Shown here one piece after another: positions 1 to 25,079 of a DNA stretch of 64,000 nt. Source of the DNA: Candidatus Thorarchaeota archaeon (GTDB lineage Archaea; Asgardarchaeota; Thorarchaeia; Thorarchaeales; Thorarchaeaceae); the NCBI GenBank assembly GCA_029858305.1, contig JAOUFI010000001.1:128087-192086 (forward strand), written 5' to 3'. The notes beneath the pieces were generated by a model. The model had not been told where the DNA came from, ran no database searches, and saw nothing but the letters and a program-made list of their open reading frames with translations. How positions within the stretch are numbered: position 1 is the stretch's first letter; the number at the start of each line of letters is the position of its first letter. The position numbers were made by a program, and so were the translations under genes.

Positions 1-24
1 AATGCCAAAATTAAAAGTCCAAAT

Positions 25-612
25 TTAGACCCTTAGCGAGCCACGGAACCCCCTAACGCCATAGAAAGAGGGTGCACTATTATGATACAAGAAGACAGTG
101 TTGTAGCGGCGATCCATAAAGATAGCGCCACCAAGTCTTCTAATATCAGAGGGTGTTATCACCCAACTCGATGTTGTTGTGTCGAAATTTCCAAGTTTCT
201 GCAACTCTCGATATTGTTCTTCTGTTAAAAGCTCGATACCAATGGCAGCAGCCATATCAATAGCGTTACCTTTTGGATGAATCCCCTTCTTTTCCCTCGC
301 TTCCTGGCCTTCGCGGTCATAACAGACATTTACGCGGCCCTTGGGGCTCTGTGCTGAACAATCATAAAAGATGTATTCGCCTGTCTTTTTATCATGGGCA
401 ACAACATCTGGTTCACCGCCAGTTCTTTCCATTTCATTAAGTGACCACAATTTTTCGCCATTATCTTCCAGCTTTGCTTGTACTTTAGCCCATTCAAGAC
501 CTTTATGTCGGTTCATGTTTTTTTCAAAGCGGGTTTTCAATATGCTGAGCAGTTCTTCACGTTGCTTGGGGGATAACTCCTTTTTGACTACTGTATTTGA
601 TGATTTAGGCAT
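25..612 (-). CDS. DUF4256 family protein (bacterial-type domain of unknown function). The track ORF extends to 786, but the likely start is the internal Met (MPKSSNTVV...) because the upstream extension runs into repeat copy A.
   Basis: The translated ORF has the conserved DUF4256-like C-terminal block NAIDMAAAIGIELLTEEQYRELQKLGNFDTTTSSWVITPSDIRRLGGAIFMDRRYNTVFLYHN, recognised from memory. The extension of the ORF beyond 612 overlaps the repeat element. Confidence 0.55.
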   Translation of the reverse strand: MPKSSNTVVKKELSPKQREELLSILKTRFEKNMNRHKGLEWAKVQAKLEDNGEKLWSLNEMERTGGEPDVVAHDKKTGEYIFYDCSAQSPKGRVNVCYDREGQEAREKKGIHPKGNAIDMAAAIGIELLTEEQYRELQKLGNFDTTTSSWVITPSDIRRLGGAIFMDRRYNTVFLYHNSAPSFYGVRGFRGSLRV

Positions 613-767
613 AACTATAGTTATTGTTCTGCGCTTATAAAATCGATTTTGCAGGAAAACGTTTACTTTGTAATGATTACTATTTGGATTAGTAAAGAAT
701 CCTAGGAAAGTTCCAGGATTTATCATGGGTACATATGTTTCTAGAATTACAAAATGCACTCTGAAAA

Positions 768-852
768 ATGAAAGGTGGCTCAACAATGACAGGCGAGGGA
801 AATTACCCCTGAATACCTGACCCCATCAGCCTATACCCCAAGTCCATCTGAG
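768..852 (+). repeat. Copy A of the 16S-3'-trailer-like direct repeat (atgaaaggtggctcaacaatgacaggcgagggaaattacccctgaatacctgaccccatcagcctataccccaagtccatctgagg). It has 1 indel and a few substitutions relative to copy H.
   Basis: Near-identity over about 85 nt to the sequence immediately 3' of the 16S gene (copy H at about 9519-9616). It lies in the intergenic gap between the divergent genes 25-612(-) and 1113-2258(+). Confidence 0.9.
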
Positions 853-1112
853 GTGTCAATAAGCAGAGCGTTAGACTCATCAAAGGCTTAACAGTTATAA
901 TAGAGCAGGTTCCCGAACGCTAAATCTAGCTATGCATACAATTCATCTTGGGATGTTTGAACACTACCAAAATCACGAACAACCTGCTGTAAACACTAGT
1001 TTTAATTCAATAAACCGCTCTCACTCATGGTACTTCACTCTATCTTCATGCATTTTGAAAATTGCGAGAATGGAAATTGAGGCATAGATGCAAATTGGCT
1101 AGGAAGTAAAGG

Positions 1113-2258
1113 ATGATGAAGACCAGACTCATTGTGATCACTTGCGTTCTAGGTTTAGTCCTCATTTTAAACGCAATACCAAGCTTTTTCGTGGAAGGAG
1201 CAAGCGCGAATCAAATAGTGCTAACAAAAACGGGACAAATTGATACTGGTGACGCTTACGATTTGTGGATTGATCCAGAAAATGACATAGCCTGTGTTAC
1301 GTGTGGTTACTCGGGAATCAAAATCTTTGACATAAGCGACCCCCATAGCCCAACTGGGATAGCGAACGTGTCTTCTTCTTTGAGTGGATATGCTCACCAA
1401 CTCGTCGTGCGTGATAATCTAATGTACATTGGTGATGGCCAGGGTGGACTCAAAATCATTGATGTTACAGATGTGTCTAATCCTGTTGTTTTGAACCAGT
1501 ATACTGGTGATTATGCATGGGATGTAGAAGTAATAGGAAACACTGCTTTTGTGGCCAATGGGTTTATGGGTAGTGGTGACAAACTGACGGTAGTCAATAT
1601 CACAGACCCTACGGAACCCGTGTTATTAGGAAATCATACTACAGTTGGAGATGCAACAGATATTGAGATTGTGGAGAATCTCGCATTTTTGACGACAAGT
1701 TATGCGGGATTTACTGTTTTTAACATTAGTAACCATACAAATCCAATACAACTCGGACAGTATGAAGGAGAATCAACTAGTAATGCAGAATTAGGAGACC
1801 TTGAAATCGTAGGAAACCTAGCTTTTCTAAGTTACTGGGATAAGAGCTTTAAAGTGCTCAATATTAGCGACATATCAAACATCAGAGTGCTAACGGAATT
1901 CAATGAAAGTCTGAGCACGTTTTCTGTATATATTGAGAAAGATCGCAATCTTGCCTTTCTCTGCGATTATGAATTAGGTCTTCTACTGCTGGATATTTCT
2001 ATTCCAAATCAACTTAGTGAAGTAGCCCGTTATTTTGATGGCGGCAAACCATGTCGTATTGAAGTTGTTGGTAATCTAGTCTATATGACGGACCAAGAGA
2101 ACGGATTCGTCATTCTAGAGATTGGCGAGATTAGCGGGTTCACAGTAGGCCCGGAGCATTTCTTACTCATTGGAGGTTTAGCTGCTGTCATTGTGCTGAT
2201 TTGGCAGCTGAAAAAAGGGAGAAAATCTGGTCTTAGTGCGGCAACCCTGAATACCTGA
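1113..2258 (+). CDS. LVIVD-repeat (beta-propeller) surface protein with an N-terminal signal or TM segment and a C-terminal TM anchor followed by KKGRK.
   Basis: There are repeated motifs of the GxxAxxL(V/A)V.DN.(A/M)Y(I/L)GDG..GLKIIDV/FDISD type, typical of LVIVD repeats. Hydrophobic N- and C-termini are present. The last 5 codons and the stop codon are supplied by repeat copy B. Confidence 0.75.
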   Translation: MMKTRLIVITCVLGLVLILNAIPSFFVEGASANQIVLTKTGQIDTGDAYDLWIDPENDIACVTCGYSGIKIFDISDPHSPTGIANVSSSLSGYAHQLVVRDNLMYIGDGQGGLKIIDVTDVSNPVVLNQYTGDYAWDVEVIGNTAFVANGFMGSGDKLTVVNITDPTEPVLLGNHTTVGDATDIEIVENLAFLTTSYAGFTVFNISNHTNPIQLGQYEGESTSNAELGDLEIVGNLAFLSYWDKSFKVLNISDISNIRVLTEFNESLSTFSVYIEKDRNLAFLCDYELGLLLLDISIPNQLSEVARYFDGGKPCRIEVVGNLVYMTDQENGFVILEIGEISGFTVGPEHFLLIGGLAAVIVLIWQLKKGRKSGLSAATLNT

Positions 2259-2282
2259 CCCCGTCAGCCTCCACTTCTAACC
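2244..2282 (+). repeat. Copy B, a partial copy containing only the 3' half of the repeat family (ccctgaatacctgaccccgtcagcctccacttctaacc).
   Basis: It shares the core ctgaatacctgaccccgtcagcc with the other copies and the tail variant seen in copies E and F. It overlaps the 3' end of CDS 1113-2258 and provides that gene's stop codon. Confidence 0.75.
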
Positions 2283-2285
2283 ATC

Positions 2286-2597
2286 ATGAACTATTTATTC
2301 GTTCAAGCAAATATTACACACAGGCTGTTCATTTTGTCAAATAATCAAGAATGGAGCAAAAGCTCTGAAAACTTATTATACTCATCTGAAGAGCTGAAAT
2401 CTAACCGACCAAAATGTATCTTTCGCATCCTAGCAGCAGTGTTGACATTAGGATTGATCTTGACATTTCCCGGATTTCCATTACAGCACTCACTAATCTT
2501 CGTACTTTACTTGGAGTTTTTTGGCTGTTTTATCATGATATATAGTTTCATCCATTGGAATTCAATAATGAAAAACAAGCAAAAAGATACCACTTAA
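2286..2597 (+). CDS. Small hypothetical membrane protein with 2 predicted TM helices.
   Basis: The ORF is bracketed by repeat copies B and C. It has hydrophobic segments (ILAAVLTLGLILTFPGF and LIFVLYLEFFGCFIMIYSFI). No recognisable domain was found. Confidence 0.35.
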   Translation: MNYLFVQANITHRLFILSNNQEWSKSSENLLYSSEELKSNRPKCIFRILAAVLTLGLILTFPGFPLQHSLIFVLYLEFFGCFIMIYSFIHWNSIMKNKQKDTT

Positions 2598-2686
2598 CAA
2601 AGAATTGTGCGACTAGTTTAGAAAAATTGATTCACACAAAATAATACAATCAGGGAACCAACTGGGAGATAGATATATGGAAAAAG

Positions 2687-2776
2687 GAAAAGGGTGGCTC
2701 AACAATGACAGGCGAGGGAAAGTACCCCTGAATACCTGACCCCGTCAGCCTATACCCCAAGTCCATCTGAGATGGA
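2687..2776 (+). repeat. Copy C of the 16S-trailer-like repeat. Over this span it is essentially identical to copy H.
   Basis: The sequence is aaagggtggctcaacaatgacaggcgagggaaagtacccctgaatacctgaccccgtcagcctataccccaagtccatctgagatgga. It ends with the small hairpin tccatc-tga-gatgga. Confidence 0.92.
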
Positions 2777-2804
2777 AGTTACTTGTTTTCAGTAATTGTA
2801 TCTT

Positions 2805-3431
2805 TTAGGGCTTGAATTTTTTGAAACATTTCGGACAGACTACAAAACCATCTGGCCTTATTATGCCACTAATTGAAATCTCTGAATTACAAGATGGACA
2901 ATTCTGGGTTGAACCTTGTTGGGTCTCGGGGACGTTCCCTCCCAATTTTCTTAATTCGGGCTCGGGTGAGTGCTTTTTGGTCTGTTCTGTGAGGTACTGA
3001 TCGAACGCTCTATCCGGGATGCCACTTCCCGTTGACAGATGTGTCCTGAGATTTCTGTAGTCTCCCATTCCGCGGTCTATCGCTCCTGATAACACAGCAT
3101 GCACCTTAACACCATTCGTCATCTCGGTGAACGTAAGCTCGATTAACATATAGACCACACTCTTACTGGTTGCTTTGATAGCGTCGAGAACTTTGAATGG
3201 GTTCAAAGGGTTAATGGGCAGTATTATTCCAACCTGCCAATCTGTTATCAACTGGGCAGAGTTACCTCCCATCAATAAATGGTACTTCGTTCCAATAGGG
3301 ATAACTCGCGTCCAGTGTTCAATTCCGTCAAACGCATCCTGAATAGAAGATTCAGGAGGAAGCATGAAATCCTCTTCGAATGTCCCCAAATTACGTACCA
3401 ACTCCAGGATTTGATTCGTCAAGTATCGCAT
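2805..3431 (-). CDS. Hypothetical protein with a C-terminal zinc-ribbon (CPSC...CPKC).
   Basis: This is a 208-aa ORF in the cassette between repeat copies C and D. It has a terminal C-x2-C ... C-x2-C motif. No confident family assignment could be made. Confidence 0.5.
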   Translation of the reverse strand: MRYLTNQILELVRNLGTFEEDFMLPPESSIQDAFDGIEHWTRVIPIGTKYHLLMGGNSAQLITDWQVGIILPINPLNPFKVLDAIKATSKSVVYMLIELTFTEMTNGVKVHAVLSGAIDRGMGDYRNLRTHLSTGSGIPDRAFDQYLTEQTKKHSPEPELRKLGGNVPETQQGSTQNCPSCNSEISISGIIRPDGFVVCPKCFKKFKP

Positions 3432-3506
3432 ATATGTATGTTTTGAACCTTAGTCAGGAAAAAAGGATGAAAATTGATTCAACTTATTCTGAAGCATATT
3501 GCAAAA

Positions 3507-3596
3507 GAGAAAGGGTGGCTCAACAACGACAGGCGAGGGAAAGTACCCCTGAATACCTGACCCCGTCAGCCTATACCCCAGTCCATATGAGATGGA
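3507..3596 (+). repeat. Copy D of the 16S-trailer-like repeat.
   Basis: The sequence is gaaagggtggctcaacaacgacaggcgagggaaagtacccctgaatacctgaccccgtcagcctataccccagtccatatgagatgga. It differs from copy H by a few point substitutions and one indel. Confidence 0.92.
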
Positions 3597-3605
3597 TGAC
3601 TTGTA

Positions 3606-4661
3606 TCATCCATAAACTCTTTTCAGGATTCTACAAATAAAGAAAGTAGTCCACGGAGACCACTCTTTCTTTTGACCAAAAGACCAATCTTTGAATTCAC
3701 GATATGTCGACTCAGGTGTAAAATGCCCTTTTTTATCAGCATTTGATATAACTACTGATAGCATATCTTGGAAAGCTGGTTCCTTTGACAGTACTTGATA
3801 GCGGCTCAATGTATCAAGCACTTCACCAATGTTATACCAGAAAAAGGGAGGACGAAGCTTTCGAAATCTCGTACCATGACCAAACATGTAAGGCCTTTCT
3901 TCTTTTGATCTCTCCCAACAGCTCAGAATCACCTTTCCTGCAGTAACCAGATTCTTTGGTCGCATATCTTCCGACAATAGGGAGAACAGCCGTAGAGCTT
4001 CAAGAGTCACTTGAGGGCATATATCATCCCTTTTTCCCGGACCACGGGCATTATTGACACTATTAGGTTCACATTTCCAAGCTATTCCTTGATTCGTGAC
4101 CTTGAGATGGTCAGTGATAAATGCTAGTGCATTTCGAACTTCTTTGGAGTTTTGATAACAACCAAGTAGCAGTGTTTCGGTAATGATATGTGTGTCACAA
4201 AGATTGGAGCCAAGTTCAGGTTGCTTCTTTGGAAATCTAGCTAATGATAAGAACCTCCCATTATCATCTTGTAGACTTTTCATCTGATTTAGCAAATCAT
4301 CAATGCGCTGATCATCGGTCGGTTTTACTCCAAAGTCAAAGAGGAGTAGTAAAACAGATGGAGGATAATCTGATTTATCGTGTCCCTTCACTAAATAGCT
4401 AGACCAGTCTTTGGGAAGGCTGTTAATGAGCGATTTCACTCTTTCATCGGATAAAACTAATTCTCGTTGCTTGCGAACAGAGGGATCAGTTTCTGGAATA
4501 CATAGTAAATCTACAATTGTCCTGTATCTTGTGAAGGGTTCATCACAACTAACTAACTCCAGTCTAGGATCGGTACCAAGTGGTCTTGCCCACTTGGGAG
4601 TTTCCCTAATAGCATCCTCTGCTACTTTTGGAATGTTTATCGATGACATTAGTACGTGCAA
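3606..4661 (-). CDS. Hypothetical protein of 351 aa. No confident domain assignment was possible.
   Basis: A long ORF fills the cassette between repeat copies D and E. Confidence 0.5.
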   Translation of the reverse strand: MHVLMSSINIPKVAEDAIRETPKWARPLGTDPRLELVSCDEPFTRYRTIVDLLCIPETDPSVRKQRELVLSDERVKSLINSLPKDWSSYLVKGHDKSDYPPSVLLLLFDFGVKPTDDQRIDDLLNQMKSLQDDNGRFLSLARFPKKQPELGSNLCDTHIITETLLLGCYQNSKEVRNALAFITDHLKVTNQGIAWKCEPNSVNNARGPGKRDDICPQVTLEALRLFSLLSEDMRPKNLVTAGKVILSCWERSKEERPYMFGHGTRFRKLRPPFFWYNIGEVLDTLSRYQVLSKEPAFQDMLSVVISNADKKGHFTPESTYREFKDWSFGQKKEWSPWTTFFICRILKRVYG

Positions 4662-4704
4662 TATCGAAAATCAGTCTTTTAACAAATCCTATCTCCGGGC
4701 AAAA

Positions 4705-4792
4705 ATGAAAGGGTGGTTCAACAGTACAGGTACGGAAAAGTACTCCTGAATACCTGACCCCGTCAGCCTCTACTTCTACCTATCTGAGAGAG
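4705..4792 (+). repeat. Copy E of the repeat. It is the most diverged copy and has an alternative 3' tail (cctctacttctacctatctgagagag).
   Basis: The sequence is atgaaagggtggttcaacagtacaggtacggaaaagtactcctgaatacctgaccccgtcagcctctacttctacc... The core ctgaatacctgaccccgtcagcc is retained. Confidence 0.85.
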
Positions 4793-4793
4793 A

Positions 4794-5075
4794 TTATTCC
4801 AACCACTTGTAACCTCGGCTTCTATGGATTATTTCAGTGACTCGAACATCATGATTTACTACAAAGTAGATTGCTCTATAATCACCAATGCGTAATCGGA
4901 AAAGAGGTGGTTCATCGTGAGAGATGAGTTTCTTGATGTCAGCCCCAGACCGTCTTCGAAACGGGTCATCTTCAAGCTCCTTTAGTCCGGCTTTGATTCG
5001 ATTCTTCTGCCTAAACTCTAACAGGTCCAATTGAGCCACTGCAGTCTTGGATAAGAAGATACTATACGTGGTCAA
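4794..5075 (-). CDS. RelE/ParE-family toxin (type II toxin-antitoxin mRNA interferase). The track ORF runs to 5147, but a TTG start at about 5075 gives a typical 93-aa toxin that overlaps the antitoxin stop by 14 nt.
   Basis: The C-terminal motif is RIGDYRAIYFVVNHDVRVTEIIHRSRGYKW, matching the RelE/ParE conserved core. The gene is immediately downstream of, and overlaps, a small RHH-like ORF. Confidence 0.7.
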   Translation of the reverse strand: MTTYSIFLSKTAVAQLDLLEFRQKNRIKAGLKELEDDPFRRRSGADIKKLISHDEPPLFRLRIGDYRAIYFVVNHDVRVTEIIHRSRGYKWLE

Positions 5076-5259
5076 GGGGAACGAACTCCTCTTCTTCGAG
5101 AATTCGTCTCTGTCTTCTCGCAAACTCAACCTGCTCTGCAACTTCAAGGAGGCGGCGGATTAACTCATCGTAGGTTTCACCTTTCTGACCATACTTCTTC
5201 AAGAGATCACGAGTTTCCTTTGATAAGGGAATAGTAGTTGTTTCACCCATATCTATCAT
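5062..5259 (-). CDS. Antitoxin, a ribbon-helix-helix (CopG-like) small protein paired with the RelE/ParE toxin.
   Basis: It is 65 aa, and the N-terminus (TIPLSKETRDLLKKYGQKGETYDELIRRLLE) has an RHH-like beta-alpha-alpha pattern. It has the classic upstream-overlapping position relative to the toxin. Confidence 0.6.
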   Translation of the reverse strand: MIDMGETTTIPLSKETRDLLKKYGQKGETYDELIRRLLEVAEQVEFARRQRRILEEEEFVPLDHV

Positions 5260-5261
5260 AA

Positions 5262-5295
5262 CTTATAATGTTGATAATTACTTATAACTTCATAG
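5262..5295 (-). promoter_or_regulatory. Putative archaeal promoter of the TA operon (a TTATAAG TATA-like box about 25 nt upstream of the antitoxin ATG), suggesting a leaderless mRNA.
   Basis: On the minus strand the sequence upstream of ATG 5259 reads ...aagTTATAAGtaattatcaacaTTATAAGatg. This was identified by reading the sequence only. Confidence 0.25.
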
Positions 5296-5401
5296 ATTCT
5301 GTTCCCTTATTGAATCACTAAACGATAATTAATTTTCTGTTGCAATATAAGTATGGGGCGTATTGCCTTTGTGGTACTCATGAACATAATTCTATCTCGA
5401 T

Positions 5402-6511
5402 TCAAGTATATTCGTAATTGTGATACTTTCCGAAGAATCTATTCAATTCATCCACTTCTTCTTTTAATAAGGTGTCAATATCGGTGTGAATTGTGTCAAG
5501 AGGAGTAATGAGGATAGATGGTTGTTTTTTGCGTCTTCCGAATTTCCAAGTCGCAATTGTCCATCCATCATAAATGACAGTGGAACGAATTATGCCACCA
5601 CCTGGCCAAACCTTTGGCTCATCTTCATTGGAAACTGCATGTTTTCGATTTGAATACCCAAGCAGATAGTTATCAAAAGCAGGAAGAAGACGAACAGACG
5701 GCCTCTCATTGCCACGTTCAAGTTCTAAGTCTTTAGTTAGCATTTTCATGGGATTTTTGCCACTGGTGACTTCCGTTGTTATTGGATCAAGAGTAGCCCA
5801 AGCTTTTCGAAGCCTCCTCATTGGCAATTTTGACCAAGATGACAGGTCTTCTATTGTTGCTGGCTGATATGCAGATAGGTATCGAAGAGCAAGCGCATGT
5901 AACATGGAATTCTCTTTTTCTAACGGTTTGAGATCCACCCAATCACCTAATGACCCGAAGGCTTCCTCTTTTCCTTTCGGAGCAACTTCACAGATATGTC
6001 CAAGTAACGCGGCACGACGAATGAGGTGATATGGTGCCTGACCTTTCCTGTCAAAAGTCATGCCATGATTTAGAAGAGTTTCAATTATCTCAGCACGGGT
6101 TTGTGGCCCATGTTTCTTTACACTATCCAAGATAATTTCTATCGCTGTTTCTGCAAGATTATCATTGAATCCTAGATTATTGAGCCTTTTACGACTCCGT
6201 GAAGCAAATGTTGATCCACATAGCGATAATAACCAAGAAACATCCTCAGATGCAAGATAGTGTAGTGTCCCTCTCATACACCAAGTCCGTATAATGGACT
6301 GAGAAGAAAAGCGGCTTTGGTCTATATCTTTGATTGTCAAACCTCTACTCCGAGCTTGGATACCGATATTTGCTGCTGAAACTTCTTGAGCTTGAATACC
6401 AAATACTCTAGCTACAATACTGGCTACATCCCGAGATTCATTTCTTGGTTCGAGTTGTTGTGATCTTAAACGGATTCGTCTGATAGCATCTTCAGAGAGA
6501 AAAACATCCAT
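5402..6511 (-). CDS. Winged-helix DNA-binding protein of the YcaQ/AlkZ family (putative crosslink-repair DNA glycosylase).
   Basis: It is 369 aa. The motifs (...CMRGTLHYLASEDVSWLL..., ...LLPAFDNYLLGYSNRKH..., ...YDGWTIATWKF) fit the DUF1006/HTH_42 AlkZ-like family, recognised from memory. Confidence 0.6.
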   Translation of the reverse strand: MDVFLSEDAIRRIRLRSQQLEPRNESRDVASIVARVFGIQAQEVSAANIGIQARSRGLTIKDIDQSRFSSQSIIRTWCMRGTLHYLASEDVSWLLSLCGSTFASRSRKRLNNLGFNDNLAETAIEIILDSVKKHGPQTRAEIIETLLNHGMTFDRKGQAPYHLIRRAALLGHICEVAPKGKEEAFGSLGDWVDLKPLEKENSMLHALALRYLSAYQPATIEDLSSWSKLPMRRLRKAWATLDPITTEVTSGKNPMKMLTKDLELERGNERPSVRLLPAFDNYLLGYSNRKHAVSNEDEPKVWPGGGIIRSTVIYDGWTIATWKFGRRKKQPSILITPLDTIHTDIDTLLKEEVDELNRFFGKYHNYEYT

Positions 6512-6676
6512 GTGATGTCTAATACTTCAGATTTAGAAATGTGTTTCCATGGTCTTTTCCATGGCTAGGTCGGTACTGCTTGCAAACTCCTCACGAGATG
6601 TCTGATTAATGCAGTCAACTTCATTTTGGATATTCACATAATAGAATACAAACTGAAAATGATAAACTACTACAAA

Positions 6677-6800
6677 ATAGAAAGGGTGGCTCAACAATGA
6701 CAGGCGAGGGAAAGTACCCCTGAATACCTGACCCCGTCGAGGCCCGTACCTCTTCCTGCTCCGAAGAACAGGAACAGCTGCTTCTACCTCTATGAGATAG
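6677..6800 (+). repeat. Copy F of the repeat. The 5' module is intact, then a roughly 42-bp internal replacement (gaggcccgtacctcttcctgctccgaagaacaggaacagctg, containing the hairpin ttcctg-N10-caggaa), then a tail ending in the hairpin tctat-gag-ataga.
   Basis: The first 62 nt match copy H, with divergence and insertion after gaccccgtc. The terminal small hairpin is preserved by compensatory changes. Confidence 0.85.
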
Positions 6801-6871
6801 AATACATAGGAGGTGATTGATGGAAGTGAGAATGACTCTCATCTTCTTCCATCCGCAGCTTCCGCTACGGA
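6801..6871 (+). other. Duplicated fragment of the 16S rRNA 3' terminus (aatacataggaggtgat / ccatccgcagcttccgctacgga, antisense to 16S), split by a 31-bp insertion (tgatggaagtgagaatgactctcatcttctt).
   Basis: The flanking blocks match 9611-9653, the real 16S 3' end plus the start of the trailer, except for the 31-bp insert. The HNH gene stop codon (plus-strand cta) lies within the fragment. Confidence 0.8.
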
Positions 6872-7413
6872 TTCTTTGCTAAAACACTCTCTAGACAATA
6901 AACCGTTAAAGTGGATTCATCACAAAGATAACCTAGTTCACAATTCAAGCACAACGTTTCGAGCTGCTCTCTTCCTAAGTCCAGATTTCCTTTTTCTTCA
7001 TGTAAGCGATAGAGGAGTTTCAGGTACTTTCCTTCGGCTATCCGAGGAACTTCGTTTCGTTTGTCCAGTTTGAACCATTCGTACAAGCCTCTTCCTCCCT
7101 TTGAGGAGTTGCACTCCCTACAAGCCATTACAACATTGTCGGAAGTATCGGGTCCGCCTTTACTTCTAGGTGCAAGGTGGTCGTAAGAGAGGTTCTCTGT
7201 TGCTCCACAATAGATGCATTGGTTTGGCATTTCTCGTTCGCGAATGTACTCTTGAATGGACCCTGACCATTCAATCTTTCCAGATTGGAGCTTTTTGAAA
7301 CGATTCATTATGAAGCCAAACTGATTCTTCCCGATTCCTGCTGAGGCTGAGATAATCTTGGAATATTGCCAATAGAGTAGATCTCTGATGGTCTTGACTG
7401 CAGAGGGTGGCAT
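6865..7413 (-). CDS. HNH endonuclease.
   Basis: The motif CIYCGATENLSYDHLAPRSKGGPDTSDNVVMACRECNSSKGG has the CxxC...H-N-H...CxxC architecture. The 3' end of the ORF abuts and overlaps the 16S-terminus-like fragment. Confidence 0.75.
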   Translation of the reverse strand: MPPSAVKTIRDLLYWQYSKIISASAGIGKNQFGFIMNRFKKLQSGKIEWSGSIQEYIREREMPNQCIYCGATENLSYDHLAPRSKGGPDTSDNVVMACRECNSSKGGRGLYEWFKLDKRNEVPRIAEGKYLKLLYRLHEEKGNLDLGREQLETLCLNCELGYLCDESTLTVYCLESVLAKNP

Positions 7414-7606
7414 CGTTTGACCTTCTATCTATTGTATATTCTGTTTTTTGCCTTATCAGTTTAGAGGTCATTGTTTCTCTGAATCAGTTTTCGTTTCAAT
7501 CAACTGAGAGGTCATTATATGGTGAAGAGAACAGCTCAACGATATTTTGACAGTTGCACACAAAGGAATAAAAGCTAAGAGAAGAGGGATATAGAAAGAG
7601 GGCGCA

Positions 7607-7843
7607 TTGGATGCCCTCGAAAAAGCGTGTGAGGAGGAATTCGCGATTAATTATCCCAAAATTCTATCAGTAGTAGTTTGTGTTCTCGTAGCATTGTCAT
7701 TATTGGCAGTCTTTCTTACTGGCACTGTATCATCTTATGCAAATGCGGCTATACTGACCAGTGGGTTCCAAGTAGCTGCTATTGCCTTTGGCCTATCAGC
7801 AATTGCCTTAGCCATACTAAGACTCAGCTATAGAGAAACCTGA
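7607..7843 (+). CDS. Small hypothetical membrane protein with 2 TM segments.
   Basis: It is 78 aa with hydrophobic stretches. It lies between the HNH gene and repeat copy G. Confidence 0.4.
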   Translation: MDALEKACEEEFAINYPKILSVVVCVLVALSLLAVFLTGTVSSYANAAILTSGFQVAAIAFGLSAIALAILRLSYRET

Positions 7844-7896
7844 TACTTCTCCATTCAAACTTGGTCATTGACGAGCAAATGCAAGAACGAGAAATG

Positions 7897-7978
7897 AGAG
7901 GGTGGCTCAACAATGACAGGCGAGGGAAAGTACCCCTGATTACCTGACCCTGTCAGCCTCTACCCCAAGTTCATCGGT
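7897..7978 (+). repeat. Copy G of the repeat, diverged in its 3' tail (cctctaccccaagttcatcgg).
   Basis: The sequence is gagagggtggctcaacaatgacaggcgagggaaagtacccctgattacctgaccctgtcagcctctaccccaagttcatc. Confidence 0.88.
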
Positions 7979-8121
7979 ACTAATCTATTACAACCGTTTG
8001 TATCCCTATATGAGAGAATCTGATGAAATGGGCAAAGAAAGAAGTATACATAGGTGATTGCTGTCTGAACTTCAGAGGATTTATCTGTGTGTTAGCAGTC
8101 GTATTTCGGTTTAGGAGTTAA

Positions 8122-9441
8122 TTGCAGGGATTGAGTGAGCCCGTGAGTGAGAATCTGTATGAATTTAAAAAGAAACGAGCTGAGCGGTTGCTGTCGCGTC
8201 CTTTTTGGAAACCAAAATGCAAGTTCTTAAGGACGCTGCTTCCGTCATTAACAGTATTGCTGTGTTTGCTTTTGGCCGAGTATAGCTTGCCAGCATCCGC
8301 AACCGTGGGGGCTCAACAACCGCCCATTGAGTTCGTACGCAGCATTCAGGTAACGCCAGATGATGAATTTCTAACCGGTAGCTTTGCCCGCATCAATTAT
8401 GTACCAGCAACTAGTCGTTTTGTTGTCACATTTGGAATAAAGGCAAGTACAGAACCGAACACATCCTTAGGAGCAGGATATGCCTTTAAAGAGTACAACT
8501 TGGACATGCAGGAAACTGGCAAGTCCGGAATCATCCAATGGTACCCCAATGTGCCTGGGGCGGGTGATTCGGGTTCCTGTATGGTCAACAATACCTACTA
8601 TTGTGCCTTCGTTTCGCAGACCAACCCAGAGTATGGCTGGACTATAATCAAATATGATGCAACTAATTGGACACGCTTGGAAGAATTGTTTTTCCCACTC
8701 GAAGAACCGAATCAGGGAAACTATGATCCCTGTGTCGCATATGTCAATGGACAGCTTGATATCTGCAACCAGTACAATCCTTCAGGAATCTGGCAACAGG
8801 GATTTTCCTCTCGCCATTACTTCTTTACAGCAGACCTCCAACCGATAGGAATGGTAACTGTCGATGATACTCCTCATATTTCAGGGGCTTCCATTATCTA
8901 TGAAGATGGTATCTACTACTATGTGTCTGCTAACGTCTACAATGGTGCTCTTGTTTTGATGAAATATGATAGTGATTGGAACTATCTCGGAATGAAGAAT
9001 CTAATGCCTCAAGCTCACTGGTCACAAGGCTTACTCTCTGATGGACGATTCTTCTATCTGGCATACTTGGATACTAGCCTGAGAAACCCTGACAACCCTG
9101 AGATTTTCTTTCCAGTCTATCCGAATGTGCGCCTCGCAGTGTTCGATCGCGACTGGAATCTCGTCCACATCGAGAATGTCACAGATTTTGCTCGCTCTGA
9201 TCACAAGAAGGGAGGTAGGCCCTGGGTAATTCTTCACGGAAATCTGTTGTATGTGTCTTACGATGTGGACACGGTGAACGTCACGACCGAGGAGGAGGAA
9301 CTGAAGTGGCAAGCCCACGTTAGCATCTATGAGATCTCAGAGTTGTCTGAAGGCGTTGACTTGATGTGGCCGCTGCTGACAGTAGGTATCATTTCTGTTG
9401 CAGCGATAGCAATCGCTTATGCAATCAAAAAGAAACGTTAA
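8122..9441 (+). CDS. Hypothetical exported or anchored protein with an N-terminal hydrophobic segment and a C-terminal TM anchor followed by KKKR.
   Basis: It is 439 aa. The N-terminal segment is LLPSLTVLLCLLLAEYSLPASA and the C-terminal segment is LLTVGIISVAAIAIAYAIKKKR. The architecture is the same as the LVIVD protein at 1113-2258. Confidence 0.5.
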   Translation: MQGLSEPVSENLYEFKKKRAERLLSRPFWKPKCKFLRTLLPSLTVLLCLLLAEYSLPASATVGAQQPPIEFVRSIQVTPDDEFLTGSFARINYVPATSRFVVTFGIKASTEPNTSLGAGYAFKEYNLDMQETGKSGIIQWYPNVPGAGDSGSCMVNNTYYCAFVSQTNPEYGWTIIKYDATNWTRLEELFFPLEEPNQGNYDPCVAYVNGQLDICNQYNPSGIWQQGFSSRHYFFTADLQPIGMVTVDDTPHISGASIIYEDGIYYYVSANVYNGALVLMKYDSDWNYLGMKNLMPQAHWSQGLLSDGRFFYLAYLDTSLRNPDNPEIFFPVYPNVRLAVFDRDWNLVHIENVTDFARSDHKKGGRPWVILHGNLLYVSYDVDTVNVTTEEEELKWQAHVSIYEISELSEGVDLMWPLLTVGIISVAAIAIAYAIKKKR

Positions 9442-9518
9442 CAAATGCCTAGAGAGAAGAGAAGTAAGTCTTAGATTAGGCATCTAGAGAATCTACTCAG
9501 AAAAATAGACAAATGAAA

Positions 9519-9616
9519 AAATGAAAGGGTGGCTCAACAATGACAGGCGAGGGAAAGTACCCCTGAATACCTGACCCCGTCAGCCTATACCCCAAGTCCA
9601 TCTGAGATGGACAAGC
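9519..9616 (+). repeat. Copy H, the reference copy and the native 3' trailer of the 16S rRNA gene (read on the plus strand; the trailer RNA is its reverse complement).
   Basis: It is directly contiguous with the 16S 3' end (aggaggtgatcc at about 9619-9630). On the minus strand it ends in oligo-U tracts (CCACCCUUUCAUUUUUUCAUUUGUCUAUUUUUC). Confidence 0.9.
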
Positions 9617-9619
9617 ATA

Positions 9620-11120
<1,501 letters not shown>

Positions 11121-11563
11121 TGGTCCTAATTATTGTACATGTTAGCAAGGCATGACTGGAGTAGAATTCAGTCACCATGTACAACGTTTTCACACATAGA
11201 ACTTTATTCGCTTGATGAAGTACAGGCGTAACGAGGTTAGCAGAGATGGCTTACCCTAATTATACCTGCACAATGTTGAGCCTTTCTTAGACCTGAGGGC
11301 ATTCTGACACTTGTGCCAGTCTATCTCACGTCCGCATCTTGTCATCGCATCTGGAAATCGCGGGCCATCATAGCTTGGCATTCGCCGACAGCATCCGGCC
11401 TGACACCGTATGATGCGAAAGCAAACACCCCCGCGAGGAGTTCTCATAAAAAGCTTTCCAAGGGGCCGCCAGATGCTCAATTATGCATTTATGGAAACAA
11501 TTTGGGAGTATTGAATTTACAAAAATTCGCAGGATTAGTCTTTTGAAAATGCCGTAAAAGATA

Positions 11564-18262: not shown

Positions 18263-18697
18263 ATGAGTGAAGATCCTGTATATTTTCCAGTTAGACTTGT
18301 ATGGACTGGCGGTAAGAGTGGAGAGATATCAATCGAGAGGAAAGCAATCATCAGAACAGGCACTCCTTTAGGTGATTCTAGCGAGGTGAACTACCATACG
18401 CCAGAGGACCTCTTTGTTGCCTCCGCTACAGTCTGTTACATGAATGGTTTCATCAATTTCACTAGGAAAATGCGCATAGAATTCAAAGCATTTGTTTGTG
18501 ATGCCATCGGAACTCTGGAGAAAGTAGACCGCAGCTTTGAGATAACCAAGATTGAAATGAAAACAACGGTTGAAATCGAATCTGAAGACCTTCGTGATAG
18601 GATCAATAGAGCTCTAGAACTTGCAGCCAAGTATTGTTTTGTTGGAAATAGTATGAAGTGTCCGATATCACATGATATTGAGATTGTAGTTGGATAA
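18263..18697 (+). CDS. OsmC/Ohr-family protein, the first of two tandem paralogs.
   Basis: The sequence PEDLFVASATVCYMNGFINFTRKMRIEF...AKYCFVGNSMKCPISHDIEIV shows the OsmC fold signature with a conserved Cys. Confidence 0.7.
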   Translation: MSEDPVYFPVRLVWTGGKSGEISIERKAIIRTGTPLGDSSEVNYHTPEDLFVASATVCYMNGFINFTRKMRIEFKAFVCDAIGTLEKVDRSFEITKIEMKTTVEIESEDLRDRINRALELAAKYCFVGNSMKCPISHDIEIVVG

Positions 18698-18748
18698 TCA
18701 CAACTAGAACCAAACCTTTTTTCATAATTATGAACAAAGTGGGCAAAG

Positions 18749-19192
18749 GTGATAGAGATGAGCGATGAGTCACACGAGTACTTTGTCAAAGTTGATTGGA
18801 AACACGATCGGGTCGGAAACTTGACTGTGAAAGGTAAGCCAAAAATACAGGTATCCGCACCTCCTGAATTCGACGGGCCTGAAGGAATCATATCCCCAGA
18901 GGACCTCTTTGTTGCTGCAGCAACCTCCTGTCTGATGACAACCTTTGTAACCTTTACAAAGAAATTACGTGTTGATTTCAAATCTTTCACCTGTGAGGGA
19001 CATGGAATATTAGAGAGGGTTGAGAAGGGATTTCAATTCACTAAGATTATTCTGAGAACAAAAGTGACTGTGGAATCAGAAGATTTCATACCCAAAACAG
19101 AGCGAGCATTAGAACTTGCAGGAAAGTACTGTCTTGTTGCTAATAGTATGAAGTGTCCAATCGAACACGAAAATGAAGTTGTTGTTGAATAA
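18749..19192 (+). CDS. OsmC/Ohr-family protein, the second tandem paralog.
   Basis: The sequence is PEDLFVAAATSCLMTTFVTFTKKLRVDF...GKYCLVANSMKCPIEHENEVVV. It is about 45% identical to the upstream paralog. Confidence 0.7.
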   Translation: MIEMSDESHEYFVKVDWKHDRVGNLTVKGKPKIQVSAPPEFDGPEGIISPEDLFVAAATSCLMTTFVTFTKKLRVDFKSFTCEGHGILERVEKGFQFTKIILRTKVTVESEDFIPKTERALELAGKYCLVANSMKCPIEHENEVVVE

Positions 19193-19202
19193 AGAAAGAT
19201 AG

Positions 19203-19226
19203 GGCCAATTCACGTTGGCCCAGTCA
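19203..19226. terminator. Hairpin (gggccaa-ttcacg-ttggccc) between convergent genes, a candidate bidirectional terminator.
   Basis: A 7-bp perfect inverted repeat lies in the 37-bp gap between the 3' ends of the OsmC gene (+) and the ValRS gene (-). Confidence 0.3.
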
Positions 19227-23899: not shown

Positions 23900-24019
23900 A
23901 CGTTGACAGCCGAGATAGCCAAGCCCGGTCAACGGCGGTGGACTCAAGATCACAGGTCAAAGGCTTGACTCCGAGGAGATATCCACTCTCGTAGGAGTAC
24001 ATGGGTTCGAATCCCATTC
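23900..24019 (+). tRNA. tRNA-Leu (anticodon CAA) with a roughly 32-nt intron at or adjacent to the canonical 37/38 position, a long variable arm, and an encoded CCA.
   Basis: The manual fold gives acceptor GCCGAGA/UCUCGGC, a Leu-type long D-loop (AAGCCCGGUCAAC), anticodon stem GUGGA/UCCAC interrupted by UCACAGGUCAAAGGCUUGACUCCGAGGAGAUA, loop CUCAAGA, a 14-nt variable arm, and T-arm AUGGG-UUCGAAU-CCCAU. Confidence 0.75.
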
Positions 24020-24125
24020 TCGGCACCATCTCTTCATTCACGGCTCTCGATATATCTTACGACATCATCACGGAATGATTCGCAATTTTTATTACAAATC
24101 CTAACTTCTAACTAAGTAGGAGGTA

Positions 24126-24638: not shown

Positions 24639-25079
24639 GTGGCGTTGAACGTTTCATATATTATTGGATTTCATTATTTCATGAGTACACTAGGTGAGAC
24701 CTCTTTGAAGTCTTCGCGAGCAGAGTTGATAAGAAAGATACTTCTTACAGTTGACCAACATCCATCTTCAATTTACGACATACTCTATTCTATGACAAAC
24801 TTCTCAGATCCAAAAAGAACTCGACTGCCAAAACTGCTCAAAGCAATGGAAAACGAGAATCTCGTCATTAGTGCTTTACAAGCACTGCTAAATGAGGTCA
24901 GCGAGGACCACCCTATCATGGTCACAAGAGTCTATGGTCACCTAGCCTCAGTCAATAGCATTGGACTCAAGATCACAGGCCAAAGGCTTGACTCCGAGGA
25001 GATATCCACTCTTGTAGGAGTTCGTGGGTTCGAATCCCATCCTCGGCACCATTTCCGATTTTCCAGTGTTACTTCTTAA
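24639..25079 (+). CDS. Hypothetical small protein. The C-terminal roughly 40 codons are read through the partial tRNA-Leu duplicate, so the true coding extent and even the gene's reality are doubtful.
   Basis: The N-terminal portion (AELIRKILLTVDQHPSSIYDILYSM...) might be a wH-like fold. The 3' third overlaps 24961-25051, a tRNA fragment. Confidence 0.25.
   Translation: MALNVSYIIGFHYFMSTLGETSLKSSRAELIRKILLTVDQHPSSIYDILYSMTNFSDPKRTRLPKLLKAMENENLVISALQALLNEVSEDHPIMVTRVYGHLASVNSIGLKITGQRLDSEEISTLVGVRGFESHPRHHFRFSSVTS
24961..25051 (+). repeat. Partial direct duplicate of tRNA-Leu(CAA), running from the anticodon stem, through the intron, to the 3' end plus CCA. It is about 93% identical to 23929-24019.
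   Basis: The sequence ttggactcaagatcacaggccaaaggcttgactccgaggagatatccactcttgtaggagttcgtgggttcgaatcccatcctcggcacca was compared by eye with the tRNA-Leu gene. It has 6 mismatches and no 5' half. Confidence 0.8.

Follow-up and report, generated by a model that had tools for sequence, protein, structure and literature searches.

Integrative elements can accumulate in tandem at the 3' ends of tRNA and tmRNA genes, as in genomic islands and tycheposon-like arrays. Among other systems built of small tandem units, archaeal integron cassette arrays and clusters of attC sites without integrase (CALINs) have been reported as enriched in Asgard archaea, where the Thorarchaeaceae are represented by two metagenome-assembled genomes (MAGs) only, with 2 attCs each (Ghaly et al., 2022; PMC9668308). 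In Heimdallarchaeum, two elements of 8 kb and 44 kb, HeimM2 and HeimV2, have been described (Wu et al., 2022; PMC8813620). The locus analysed here, a stretch of 64,000 nucleotides of contig JAOUFI010000001.1 (the window), carries a 16S rRNA gene followed by direct copies of its 3' end and trailer, with small genes between them, one of which encodes an HNH nuclease. Its source is probably a Thorarchaeota-like Asgard archaeon, with a cassette array directly behind its unlinked 16S gene. Our reading, to which we give a probability of about 0.6, is that of an integron-like cassette array anchored on the 16S trailer, in which each cassette ends in a copy of the 16S end and trailer.

The Rfam scan finds the 16S gene, and no 23S gene, in the 64-kb window, the 16S being unlinked. 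Downstream of the 16S gene and on the same strand, eight direct copies of the trailer are found, at ~9515 (the real one), 7888, 6672, 4701, 3501, 2680, 2246 (partial) and 761. A ninth one lies beyond the left edge of the window; the loci used for comparison are designated by L numbers. The elements of the array are the following:

9619..11120, minus strand: resident 16S rRNA gene (Rfam SSU_rRNA_archaea, 1376 bits, model positions 1-1478)
11271..11282, minus strand: 16S leader element GGCTCAACATTG (inverted repeat I9, 12 nt at 92%)
9490..9618, minus strand: resident 16S 3' trailer (copy H), with hairpins, core TGTTGAGCCACCC (9527-9539) and T-run
7869..8075, minus strand: copy G, trailer part, core at 7900-7912
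6645..6876, minus strand: copy F, full-length pseudo 16S end and trailer (nhmmer profile positions 2-251, E-value 3e-60; fold; alignments)
4699..4780, minus strand: copy E, trailer part only, core TGTTGAACCACCC at 4711-4723, at the 3' end of a DUF7557/ParE cassette
3481..3583, minus strand: copy D, trailer type (repeat finder, nhmmer)
2668..2765, minus strand: copy C, trailer type (repeat finder, nhmmer)
2246..2285, minus strand: copy B, partial, keeping the left half of the trailer hairpin and no core
755..842, minus strand: copy A, trailer type (repeat finder, nhmmer)
L001 10509-10680: ninth copy, F-type, array terminus, ~740 nt beyond the left edge of the window

The leader element at 11271-11282 is complementary to the trailer core and is the 5' strand of the pre-16S processing helix. 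This conserved element (GCTCAACA) is also found in L026 and L068, with long leader-trailer duplexes. As the core is complementary to a conserved leader element, it is the trailer strand of the pre-16S processing helix. By-eye inspection of the leader-trailer helix for a bulge-helix-bulge motif gave no convincing candidate.

Copy G is longer than the repeat finder had shown: near 8046-8075 it has a helix-45-like hairpin in a decayed state (TCTGAAGTTCAGA), together with what is left of an F-type 16S terminus (CAATCACC-TATGTAT). The ninth copy is composed of a helix-45 copy, a 31-nt hairpin, a degenerate anti-Shine-Dalgarno (anti-SD) sequence (ATCCCCTCCGA) and the hairpin 4 of copy F, its right end being decayed, with neither TGTTGAGC nor T-run. 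A similar copy, consisting of a left part only, ends the array of L007 (14818-14966).

Copy F is the only copy of the window that clearly reproduces the 16S terminus. A preliminary description of this DNA, made from the sequence alone, had reported such a duplicate at this place, and the similarity is far from what chance would give: 23 nt (CCATCCGCAGCTTCCGCTACGGA) are exactly shared by copy F (6849-6871) and the 16S gene (9629-9651), and 100 shuffles yielded zero matches to them, even when up to 3 mismatches were allowed. The wider match, between 6848-6881 and 9628-9661 (repeat family D6), reaches 91% over 34 nt. The terminus itself, ATAGGAGGTGAT, is present at 6806-6817 in copy F and at 9617-9628 in the resident gene. 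In copy F, and in no other copy of the window, the ATAGGAGGTGAT and CCATCCGCAGCTTCCGCTACGGA pieces are separated by 31 nt (6818-6848). As a contig of ENA ERZ27296335 is 100% identical to positions 1-9768 of the window, and a Logan contig of SRR7132115, which crosses the junction of copy F, is 100% identical to positions 6797-7925, these two independent assemblies show that the junction is not an assembly artefact. Read from the 16S end towards the right end, copy F comprises:

6849-6876: helix-45 copy
6818-6848: 31-nt hairpin
6806-6817: anti-SD-like sequence ATCACCTCCTAT
about 6781-6805: hairpin 3
about 6745-6775: hairpin 4
6697-6740: trailer hairpin
6684-6696: core
6665-6683: T-run

Copy F is also a hybrid. 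Its left part is F-type, ~82% like the genuine 16S end of L012, and 58 nt of its right part match the resident trailer at 100%. The trailer of copy F also contains a GCAGCUU complementary to AAGCUGC, i.e., to the loop and 3' strand of helix 45 (columns 20-26 and 102-108 of alignment A8; window 6851-6857 and 6776-6782). RNAalifold favours this long-range pairing, both sides of which are invariant and thus give no covariation evidence; it could be, as a predicted fold, an alternative conformation of the precursor.

The 31 nt of copy F had been taken for an insertion splitting the duplicate at the 16S terminus. A segment is indeed present at this very place, between the two pieces, and the comparison with other Thorarchaeota shows that it is not an insertion. 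Related contigs were reached via homologues of the HNH protein, and many Candidatus Thorarchaeota MAGs were added by searching one genome per species for the junction-specific 18-mer GAAGCTGCGGATGGAAGA. In L015, L044 and L064, a genuine 16S (...GGGAGAAGTCGTAACAAGGTATCCGTAGCGG...) lies upstream of the same 31-nt-type hairpin, positioned between GGATGG and ATCACCTCC. The same is found in L012, L017, L026, L054, L068 and L085, where a second hairpin of ~30 nt is located between GTCGTAA and CAAGGTA. By Rfam, the 16S genes with hairpin are full-length in L026 (4328-5850) and L068 (2207-3794), and partial 16S genes lie at contig ends in L008, L012, L015, L044 and L054. The hairpin regions of genuine 16S genes are:

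L026 5806-5935
L068 3745-3875
L012 7399-7270, minus strand
L015 187-300
L044 6814-6700, minus strand

Since the same hairpin occupies this position in genuine 16S genes, the 31 nt are a lineage feature: a lineage-typical hairpin between helix 45 and the anti-Shine-Dalgarno tail. The number of hairpins flanking helix 45 is none in the 16S genes of the window and of L008, one in L015, L044 and L064, and two in the six other loci, with precise presence or absence between lineages. The outer stem (GAUGGAAG/CUUCCAUC) is invariant, and the inner stem is variable, with some compensation. An archaeal bulge-helix-bulge intron was also considered for the 31 nt. In such a motif, the splice sites lie in two 3-nt bulges separated by a 4-bp helix. 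Inspection of the folds places the 5' boundary of the 31 nt inside the continuous 8-9-bp helix GAUGGAAG/CUUCCAUC, and this candidate was rejected. The second hairpin, where present, does not have this intron form either.

The second peculiarity of copy F, reported as a 42-bp internal replacement with its own hairpin, is to be revised in the same way. The segment where copy F departs from the resident trailer does fold as a hairpin. It is nevertheless not a replacement, as the resident trailer of L008 retains hairpins 3 and 4, while that of the window is without hairpin 4. Both the 31 nt and the "42-bp replacement" are thus ancestral or lineage-typical features kept by copy F. It is the resident 16S and trailer of the window genome that have lost the 31-nt hairpin, absent by sequence reading between helix 45 and the anti-SD tail, and hairpin 4, copy H being derived by deletion from the lineage-typical trailer. 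A paper on rRNA expansions (PMC7594248) does not mention the hairpins flanking helix 45, and we found no description of them for Thorarchaeota 16S genes in the literature.

The duplication of the 16S end is not restricted to the window. Using an nhmmer profile built from 22 F-type units, we find 86 copies in Thorarchaeota loci. Arrays of at least 3 copies are present at ten loci, with 3-10 copies each, all on one strand, and four other loci of the tally contain 2 copies each. In L138, a contig of the original SMTZ1 Thorarchaeota bin, 10 copies are packed in 12 kb, and the median spacing between copies is 1089 nt. The extent of the copies to the left is variable, as they start at helix 45 or at about profile position 95, 125 or 170. 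Many of them start in or just before helix 45, which bears out the proposal that the recombining unit reaches into the 16S end. The right end is constant, TGTTGAGC(C)ACCC and then a T-run: of 54 pseudo-copies, 41 match TGTTGAGC exactly and 10 differ from it at one position. The core reaches 1.6 bits of information per position, versus 0.3 upstream and 0.13 downstream, and minimal copies of 35-60 nt are reduced to the core and T-run. GAGTGGA, at +35 to +42, was considered as a second downstream motif and rejected, being present in only 16-21 of 86 copies. Beside the array of L015, Rfam finds a PYLIS_3 element (mttB pyrrolysine insertion element; 3900-3999, minus strand) with 40.7 bits, just above its gathering score.

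A copy of L008 (1227-1580) has ~145 nt of pseudo-16S with both hairpins, 88.5% identical (3 gaps) to the L012-type 16S versus 74.6% (41 gaps) to the 16S of its own genome; its source is therefore ancestral or foreign. The types of trailer hairpin also differ among copies of one array (L008, L076), being only 60-75% alike, which indicates that each cassette carries its own copy.

One alternative needs no dedicated enzyme. Circles carrying a 16S end and trailer could integrate by a Campbell-type, RadA-dependent crossover anywhere in the homology, excision between any two direct copies would free cassettes, and the conserved 16S end would provide homology across species. The variable left extents of the copies and the fuzzy 5' boundaries of the cassettes are as such a process would leave them. 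So are hybrid copies such as copy F, with its foreign left part and its right part identical to the resident trailer, as well as the copies linked to the HNH gene in L008 and L070, which resemble the resident trailer and suggest gene conversion; the lack of a recombinase gene in the arrays (see below) points in the same direction. In contrast, copies of 35-60 nt with an intact core bound cassettes, although so short a stretch is a poor substrate for homologous recombination, the constancy of the right end is sharp, and the trailer hairpins of one array are too dissimilar, at 60-75%, to fit easily. We regard this alternative as unlikely, at about one chance in five. Homologous recombination is nevertheless kept in play by the variable left extents, the fuzzy 5' boundaries and the hybrid or homogenised copies.

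In the Thorarchaeota arrays, one or two small genes lie between consecutive copies. Their cargo is rich in toxin-antitoxin genes: PIN domains are found in 13 of 84 array open reading frames (ORFs), the others encoding VapB, ParE/DUF7557, HicA, GNAT acetyltransferases, methyltransferases, AlkZ-like glycosylases, HNH and membrane proteins. Relative to the copies, 54 of 86 ORFs have the same orientation and 32 the opposite one, and the orientation of the copies never flips. When ORF and copy are co-oriented, the median distance from stop codon to copy start is 23 nt.

This proximity would also be expected if the copies acted at the RNA level, as processing or termination modules under selection for RNA structure and not for recombination. 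Read-through from the strong 16S promoter would then pair the leader with the trailer copies, or the mRNAs of the cassettes would use the module as their 3' end. Several features are in line with this: the core corresponds to the trailer side of the processing helix, an oligo-T terminator closes every copy, compensatory changes and many G-U pairs are seen in the hairpins, and the co-oriented ORFs, a majority, stop close to a copy. The covariation could alternatively be inherited from different real trailers, identical cassettes in different arrays are left unexplained, and the orientation of the copies is uniform despite 32 opposed ORFs out of 86, which points to a constraint at the DNA level. 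We thus consider a purely RNA-level function as very improbable, the least probable of the explanations weighed here.

The cassette organisation is illustrated by a toxin-antitoxin pair of the window:

4707..5302, minus strand: DUF7557/ParE toxin-antitoxin cassette, common to at least 8 other loci in different neighbourhoods

This block recurs in L007, L008, L065, L076, L137, L138 and L150-L155, with an identical 65-aa antitoxin in at least 4 neighbourhoods, and the common block ends at core+4 of its own copy; the metagenome scan with ParE gave 13 loci, 4 of them useful. The arrays thus have two traits of mobile-cassette arrays, one site at each 3' end and cassettes common between arrays. Just upstream of the ParE cassette, decayed right ends of copies are found both in the window (5303-5400, CGCCCCATACTTATATTGCAACAG) and in L008 (5385-5440, CTGTTCAATCCTCCTTTTCATCTTGTATCAGT). 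In view of these remnants, apparent two-gene cassettes may be fusions that followed the decay of a copy.

The gene associated with copy F is another such cassette:

6865..7413, minus strand: HNH nuclease gene, 182 aa (Pfam HNH 2e-12, HNH_5 4e-12)
6733..7492, minus strand: HNH cassette block (~80 nt of leader, the gene and the left part of the copy), common to other Thorarchaeota arrays

As had been noticed, this gene terminates inside the copy: it stops at 6865-6867 (cta when read on the plus strand), on the TAG of CCGTAGCGG, in the copy of the helix 45 5' strand. The block (window 7492-6733) shows 81% identity with L070 3564-4330 and 84% with L008 4058-4696, and the stop codon lies inside the copy in all three cases (window, L008 and L070). 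The suggestion that the nuclease gene travels with this junction is thus upheld, and copy F is probably the 3' copy of the HNH gene cassette, keeping a lineage-typical 16S terminus. Between copy G and this cassette lies a segment of ~400 nt (window 7500-7870) with a 78-aa membrane ORF on the plus strand (7607-7843). The HNH cassettes of L008 and L070 have no such segment, and it may be an orphan cassette that no longer has its own copy.

The HNH family comprises 1230 homologues, the best 120 having 62-95% identity. The HNH catalytic motif is present, the CxxC...DH...N...CxxCN residues being invariant in the family alignment, and the similarity to Cas9 and IscB HNH domains is at the domain level only. 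The protein is strongly conserved through ...LTVYCLES(I/V)L, then ends in a variable tail, whose last 3-4 codons alone overlap copy F.

A more active role had been proposed for this nuclease. The att site of a mobile element would have overlapped the 16S terminus, the footprint would have been split later by the 31 bp, and the HNH protein, as a homing endonuclease cutting the rDNA end or trailer, would mobilise the array. The copy does reach the 16S end, and three genomes show a physical linkage between it and the HNH gene. HNH cassettes are present in four array loci examined (window, L007, L008 and L070), and many HNH homologues are on contigs of ~1 kb, as expected if they are flanked by repeats. 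A precedent could also be seen in HeimM2, which has a homing-endonuclease homologue and lies between 16S and tRNA in Heimdallarchaeum (Wu et al., 2022; PMC8813620). The genomic contexts of the family nevertheless argue for another role. Orthologues with 63-84% identity have ordinary neighbours in four other lineages, Promethearchaeota, Thermoplasmata, Methanoperedens and another one. At the three non-Thorarchaeota loci that were scanned (L003, L130 and L133), Rfam finds no rRNA, and nhmmer finds no repeat copy in L003, the one such locus searched with it; HNH homologues are therefore not consistently associated with a target locus, contrary to the tie to rDNA that had been proposed. Within Thorarchaeota, the HNH gene of L007 has no copy after its stop codon, and the available contig sequence of several arrays (L076, L065, L015, L044, L058 and L138) is without HNH. 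In addition, the 31 nt occur in genuine 16S genes, and the conservation of the family is far stronger than that of typical homing nucleases, which is unusual for a homing enzyme; the overlap with the copy is limited to the variable tail of the protein. The ordinary contexts outside Thorarchaeota, the lack of rRNA at the three loci scanned and of a copy in L003, and the L007 gene without copy lead us to conclude that the HNH gene is cargo, one cassette among many, and not the mobilising function of the array. The genomic contexts of the orthologues led us to reject it as the engine of the array, and the whole scenario of an att site secondarily split by an insertion and mobilised by this nuclease appears improbable.

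The preferred reading, an integron-like array anchored on the 16S trailer, could work as follows. A cassette consists of a short leader, one or two genes, and a 3' copy of the 16S end and trailer, which may begin at any point between helix 45 and the last trailer hairpin. Recombination at the conserved core, or immediately behind it, would excise and insert cassettes. This would keep the copies in direct orientation behind the 16S gene, and cassettes would be exchanged among Thorarchaeota, the recombining enzyme being supplied in trans. The anatomy of the arrays, their spread through the lineage and the presence of common cassettes in different contexts are observed, and from these we infer both the recombination at the core and the trans-acting recombinase; the two are favoured by the uniform orientation of the copies, their constant right end and the core-only copies of 35-60 nt. 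A fixed crossover point was considered, but the boundaries give no single position, the 3' ones of the cassettes lying between core+4 and core+17 and the 5' ones between +10 and +60.

Several points weigh against this mechanism. First, no recombinase or transposase is found in the arrays, in the 64-kb window or in the flanking DNA. Individual searches of the window's large ORFs and of 10 ORFs from L138 gave no Phage_integrase-type match, hence neither an integron integrase nor an att-adjacent integrase. The 84 array ORFs of the other loci were searched through their top 25 Pfam families, and no integrase is among these 25 most frequent of the 84 matched families, beyond which a lone recombinase match could hide. 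Second, the 5' boundaries of the cassettes, at +10 to +60 nt after the preceding core, are not fixed, which is as compatible with homologous recombination as with a precise site-specific cut. Third, pseudo-copies may owe their conserved core simply to descent from real trailers constrained by rRNA processing, without any selection on the copies themselves. Fourth, no array directly follows the real 16S in two MAGs (L026 and L068), the arrays of these MAGs being on other contigs (L070 and L018 for L026, and L007 for L068). Finally, no circular or excised form was observed, and IMG/VR contains no exact match to the F-type junction or to the core, so that a viral or plasmid vehicle is not backed.

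One possibility, which we put forward tentatively and hold as somewhat less likely than its opposite, is that these arrays constitute a gene-capture platform of Thorarchaeota, an analogue of integrons, evolutionarily distinct from them, whose sites derive from the 16S 3' end and its processing-stem trailer. If so, the 16S trailer would be the primary insertion point, placing the cassettes, moved by a trans-acting enzyme, behind the strongest promoter in the cell, and the 16S end would be a landing pad conserved across the lineage. Were cassettes actively exchanged, this would be a second, independently evolved integron-like platform, in Asgard archaea, and horizontal gene flow would be tied to the rRNA locus and its processing signals. 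It would also explain why 16S genes break Thorarchaeota assemblies. The two short hairpins flanking helix 45 matter for primer design, for the annotation of 16S genes and for models of the 3' minor domain of the ribosome.

We have found no description of 16S-derived cassette arrays in the literature, and three known systems can be compared to them. As in the genomic islands of tRNA and tmRNA gene ends, the arrays have direct repeats that reproduce the 3' portion of a stable-RNA gene, they keep an intact version of this gene at one end, where it is regenerated in these islands, and they grow by repeated insertion. The differences are that the target is here the 16S end and trailer, that the units are of ~1 kb and without integrase, and that the left extent of the copies is variable. 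The window itself contains a footprint of the same type as the 16S copies at a tRNA gene: an intron-containing tRNA (23909-24025, Rfam 44.7 bits) has a 90%-identical duplicate of ~100 nt of its 3' part at 24951-25055, 1 kb downstream, with ORFs of 154 and 146 aa and no integrase in between. The repeat finder also detects a direct repeat of 105 nt with 75% identity (18609-18713 and 19104-19208), near an ORF at 18436-18990.

Resembling the present arrays, HeimM2 and HeimV2 are mobile elements of Asgard archaea that sit right after the single 16S gene, and HeimM2 also has a homing-endonuclease homologue. Its nuclease is related to the homing enzymes of rRNA introns and belongs to another family than the small HNH protein described here. 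The Heimdallarchaeum elements are, in contrast, single ones, and neither cassette arrays nor duplicated 16S ends are reported for them (PMC8813620).

The third comparison is with integrons, especially sedentary chromosomal ones, and CALINs. These and the present arrays have in common: (i) tandem cassettes of ~1 kb, with one or two genes and a structured site of 60-230 nt at the 3' end, (ii) sites all in one orientation, a cargo rich in toxin-antitoxin genes and the same cassettes in different arrays, and (iii) a core, GTTGAGC, that fits the attC R' consensus GTTRRRY. An attC site, R''(RYYYAAC)-L''...L'-R'(GTTRRRY), folds as one imperfect hairpin with extrahelical bases. In the copies, the R'-like GTTGAGC is present in nearly all cases and the trailer part is an imperfect hairpin with bulged bases, but the 5' arm departs from RYYYAAC (see below). 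An identity with the archaeal integrons already described was rejected: no attC containing TGTTGAGC is present in the supplement of Ghaly et al. (2022; PMC9668308), and, since the only two Thorarchaeaceae MAGs there have 2 attCs each, the present arrays were not picked up as integrons. Integrons also differ in that their sites are not homologous to the 16S 3' end and trailer, as they are here, and in that an array starts at intI/attI, whereas here it starts at the 16S gene and no IntI is found. Moreover, the left arm, GGCTGAC or CTTCGAC with G-U pairing, does not fit the R'' consensus RYYYAAC, several hairpins in series compose each unit, and 37% of the ORFs are reversed. The direct repeats that equal the 3' part of the 16S gene, next to an intact gene, are as in att duplications at stable-RNA genes, and the cassettes are organised as in integrons. 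The larger structure is probably a new variant of cassette-array systems.

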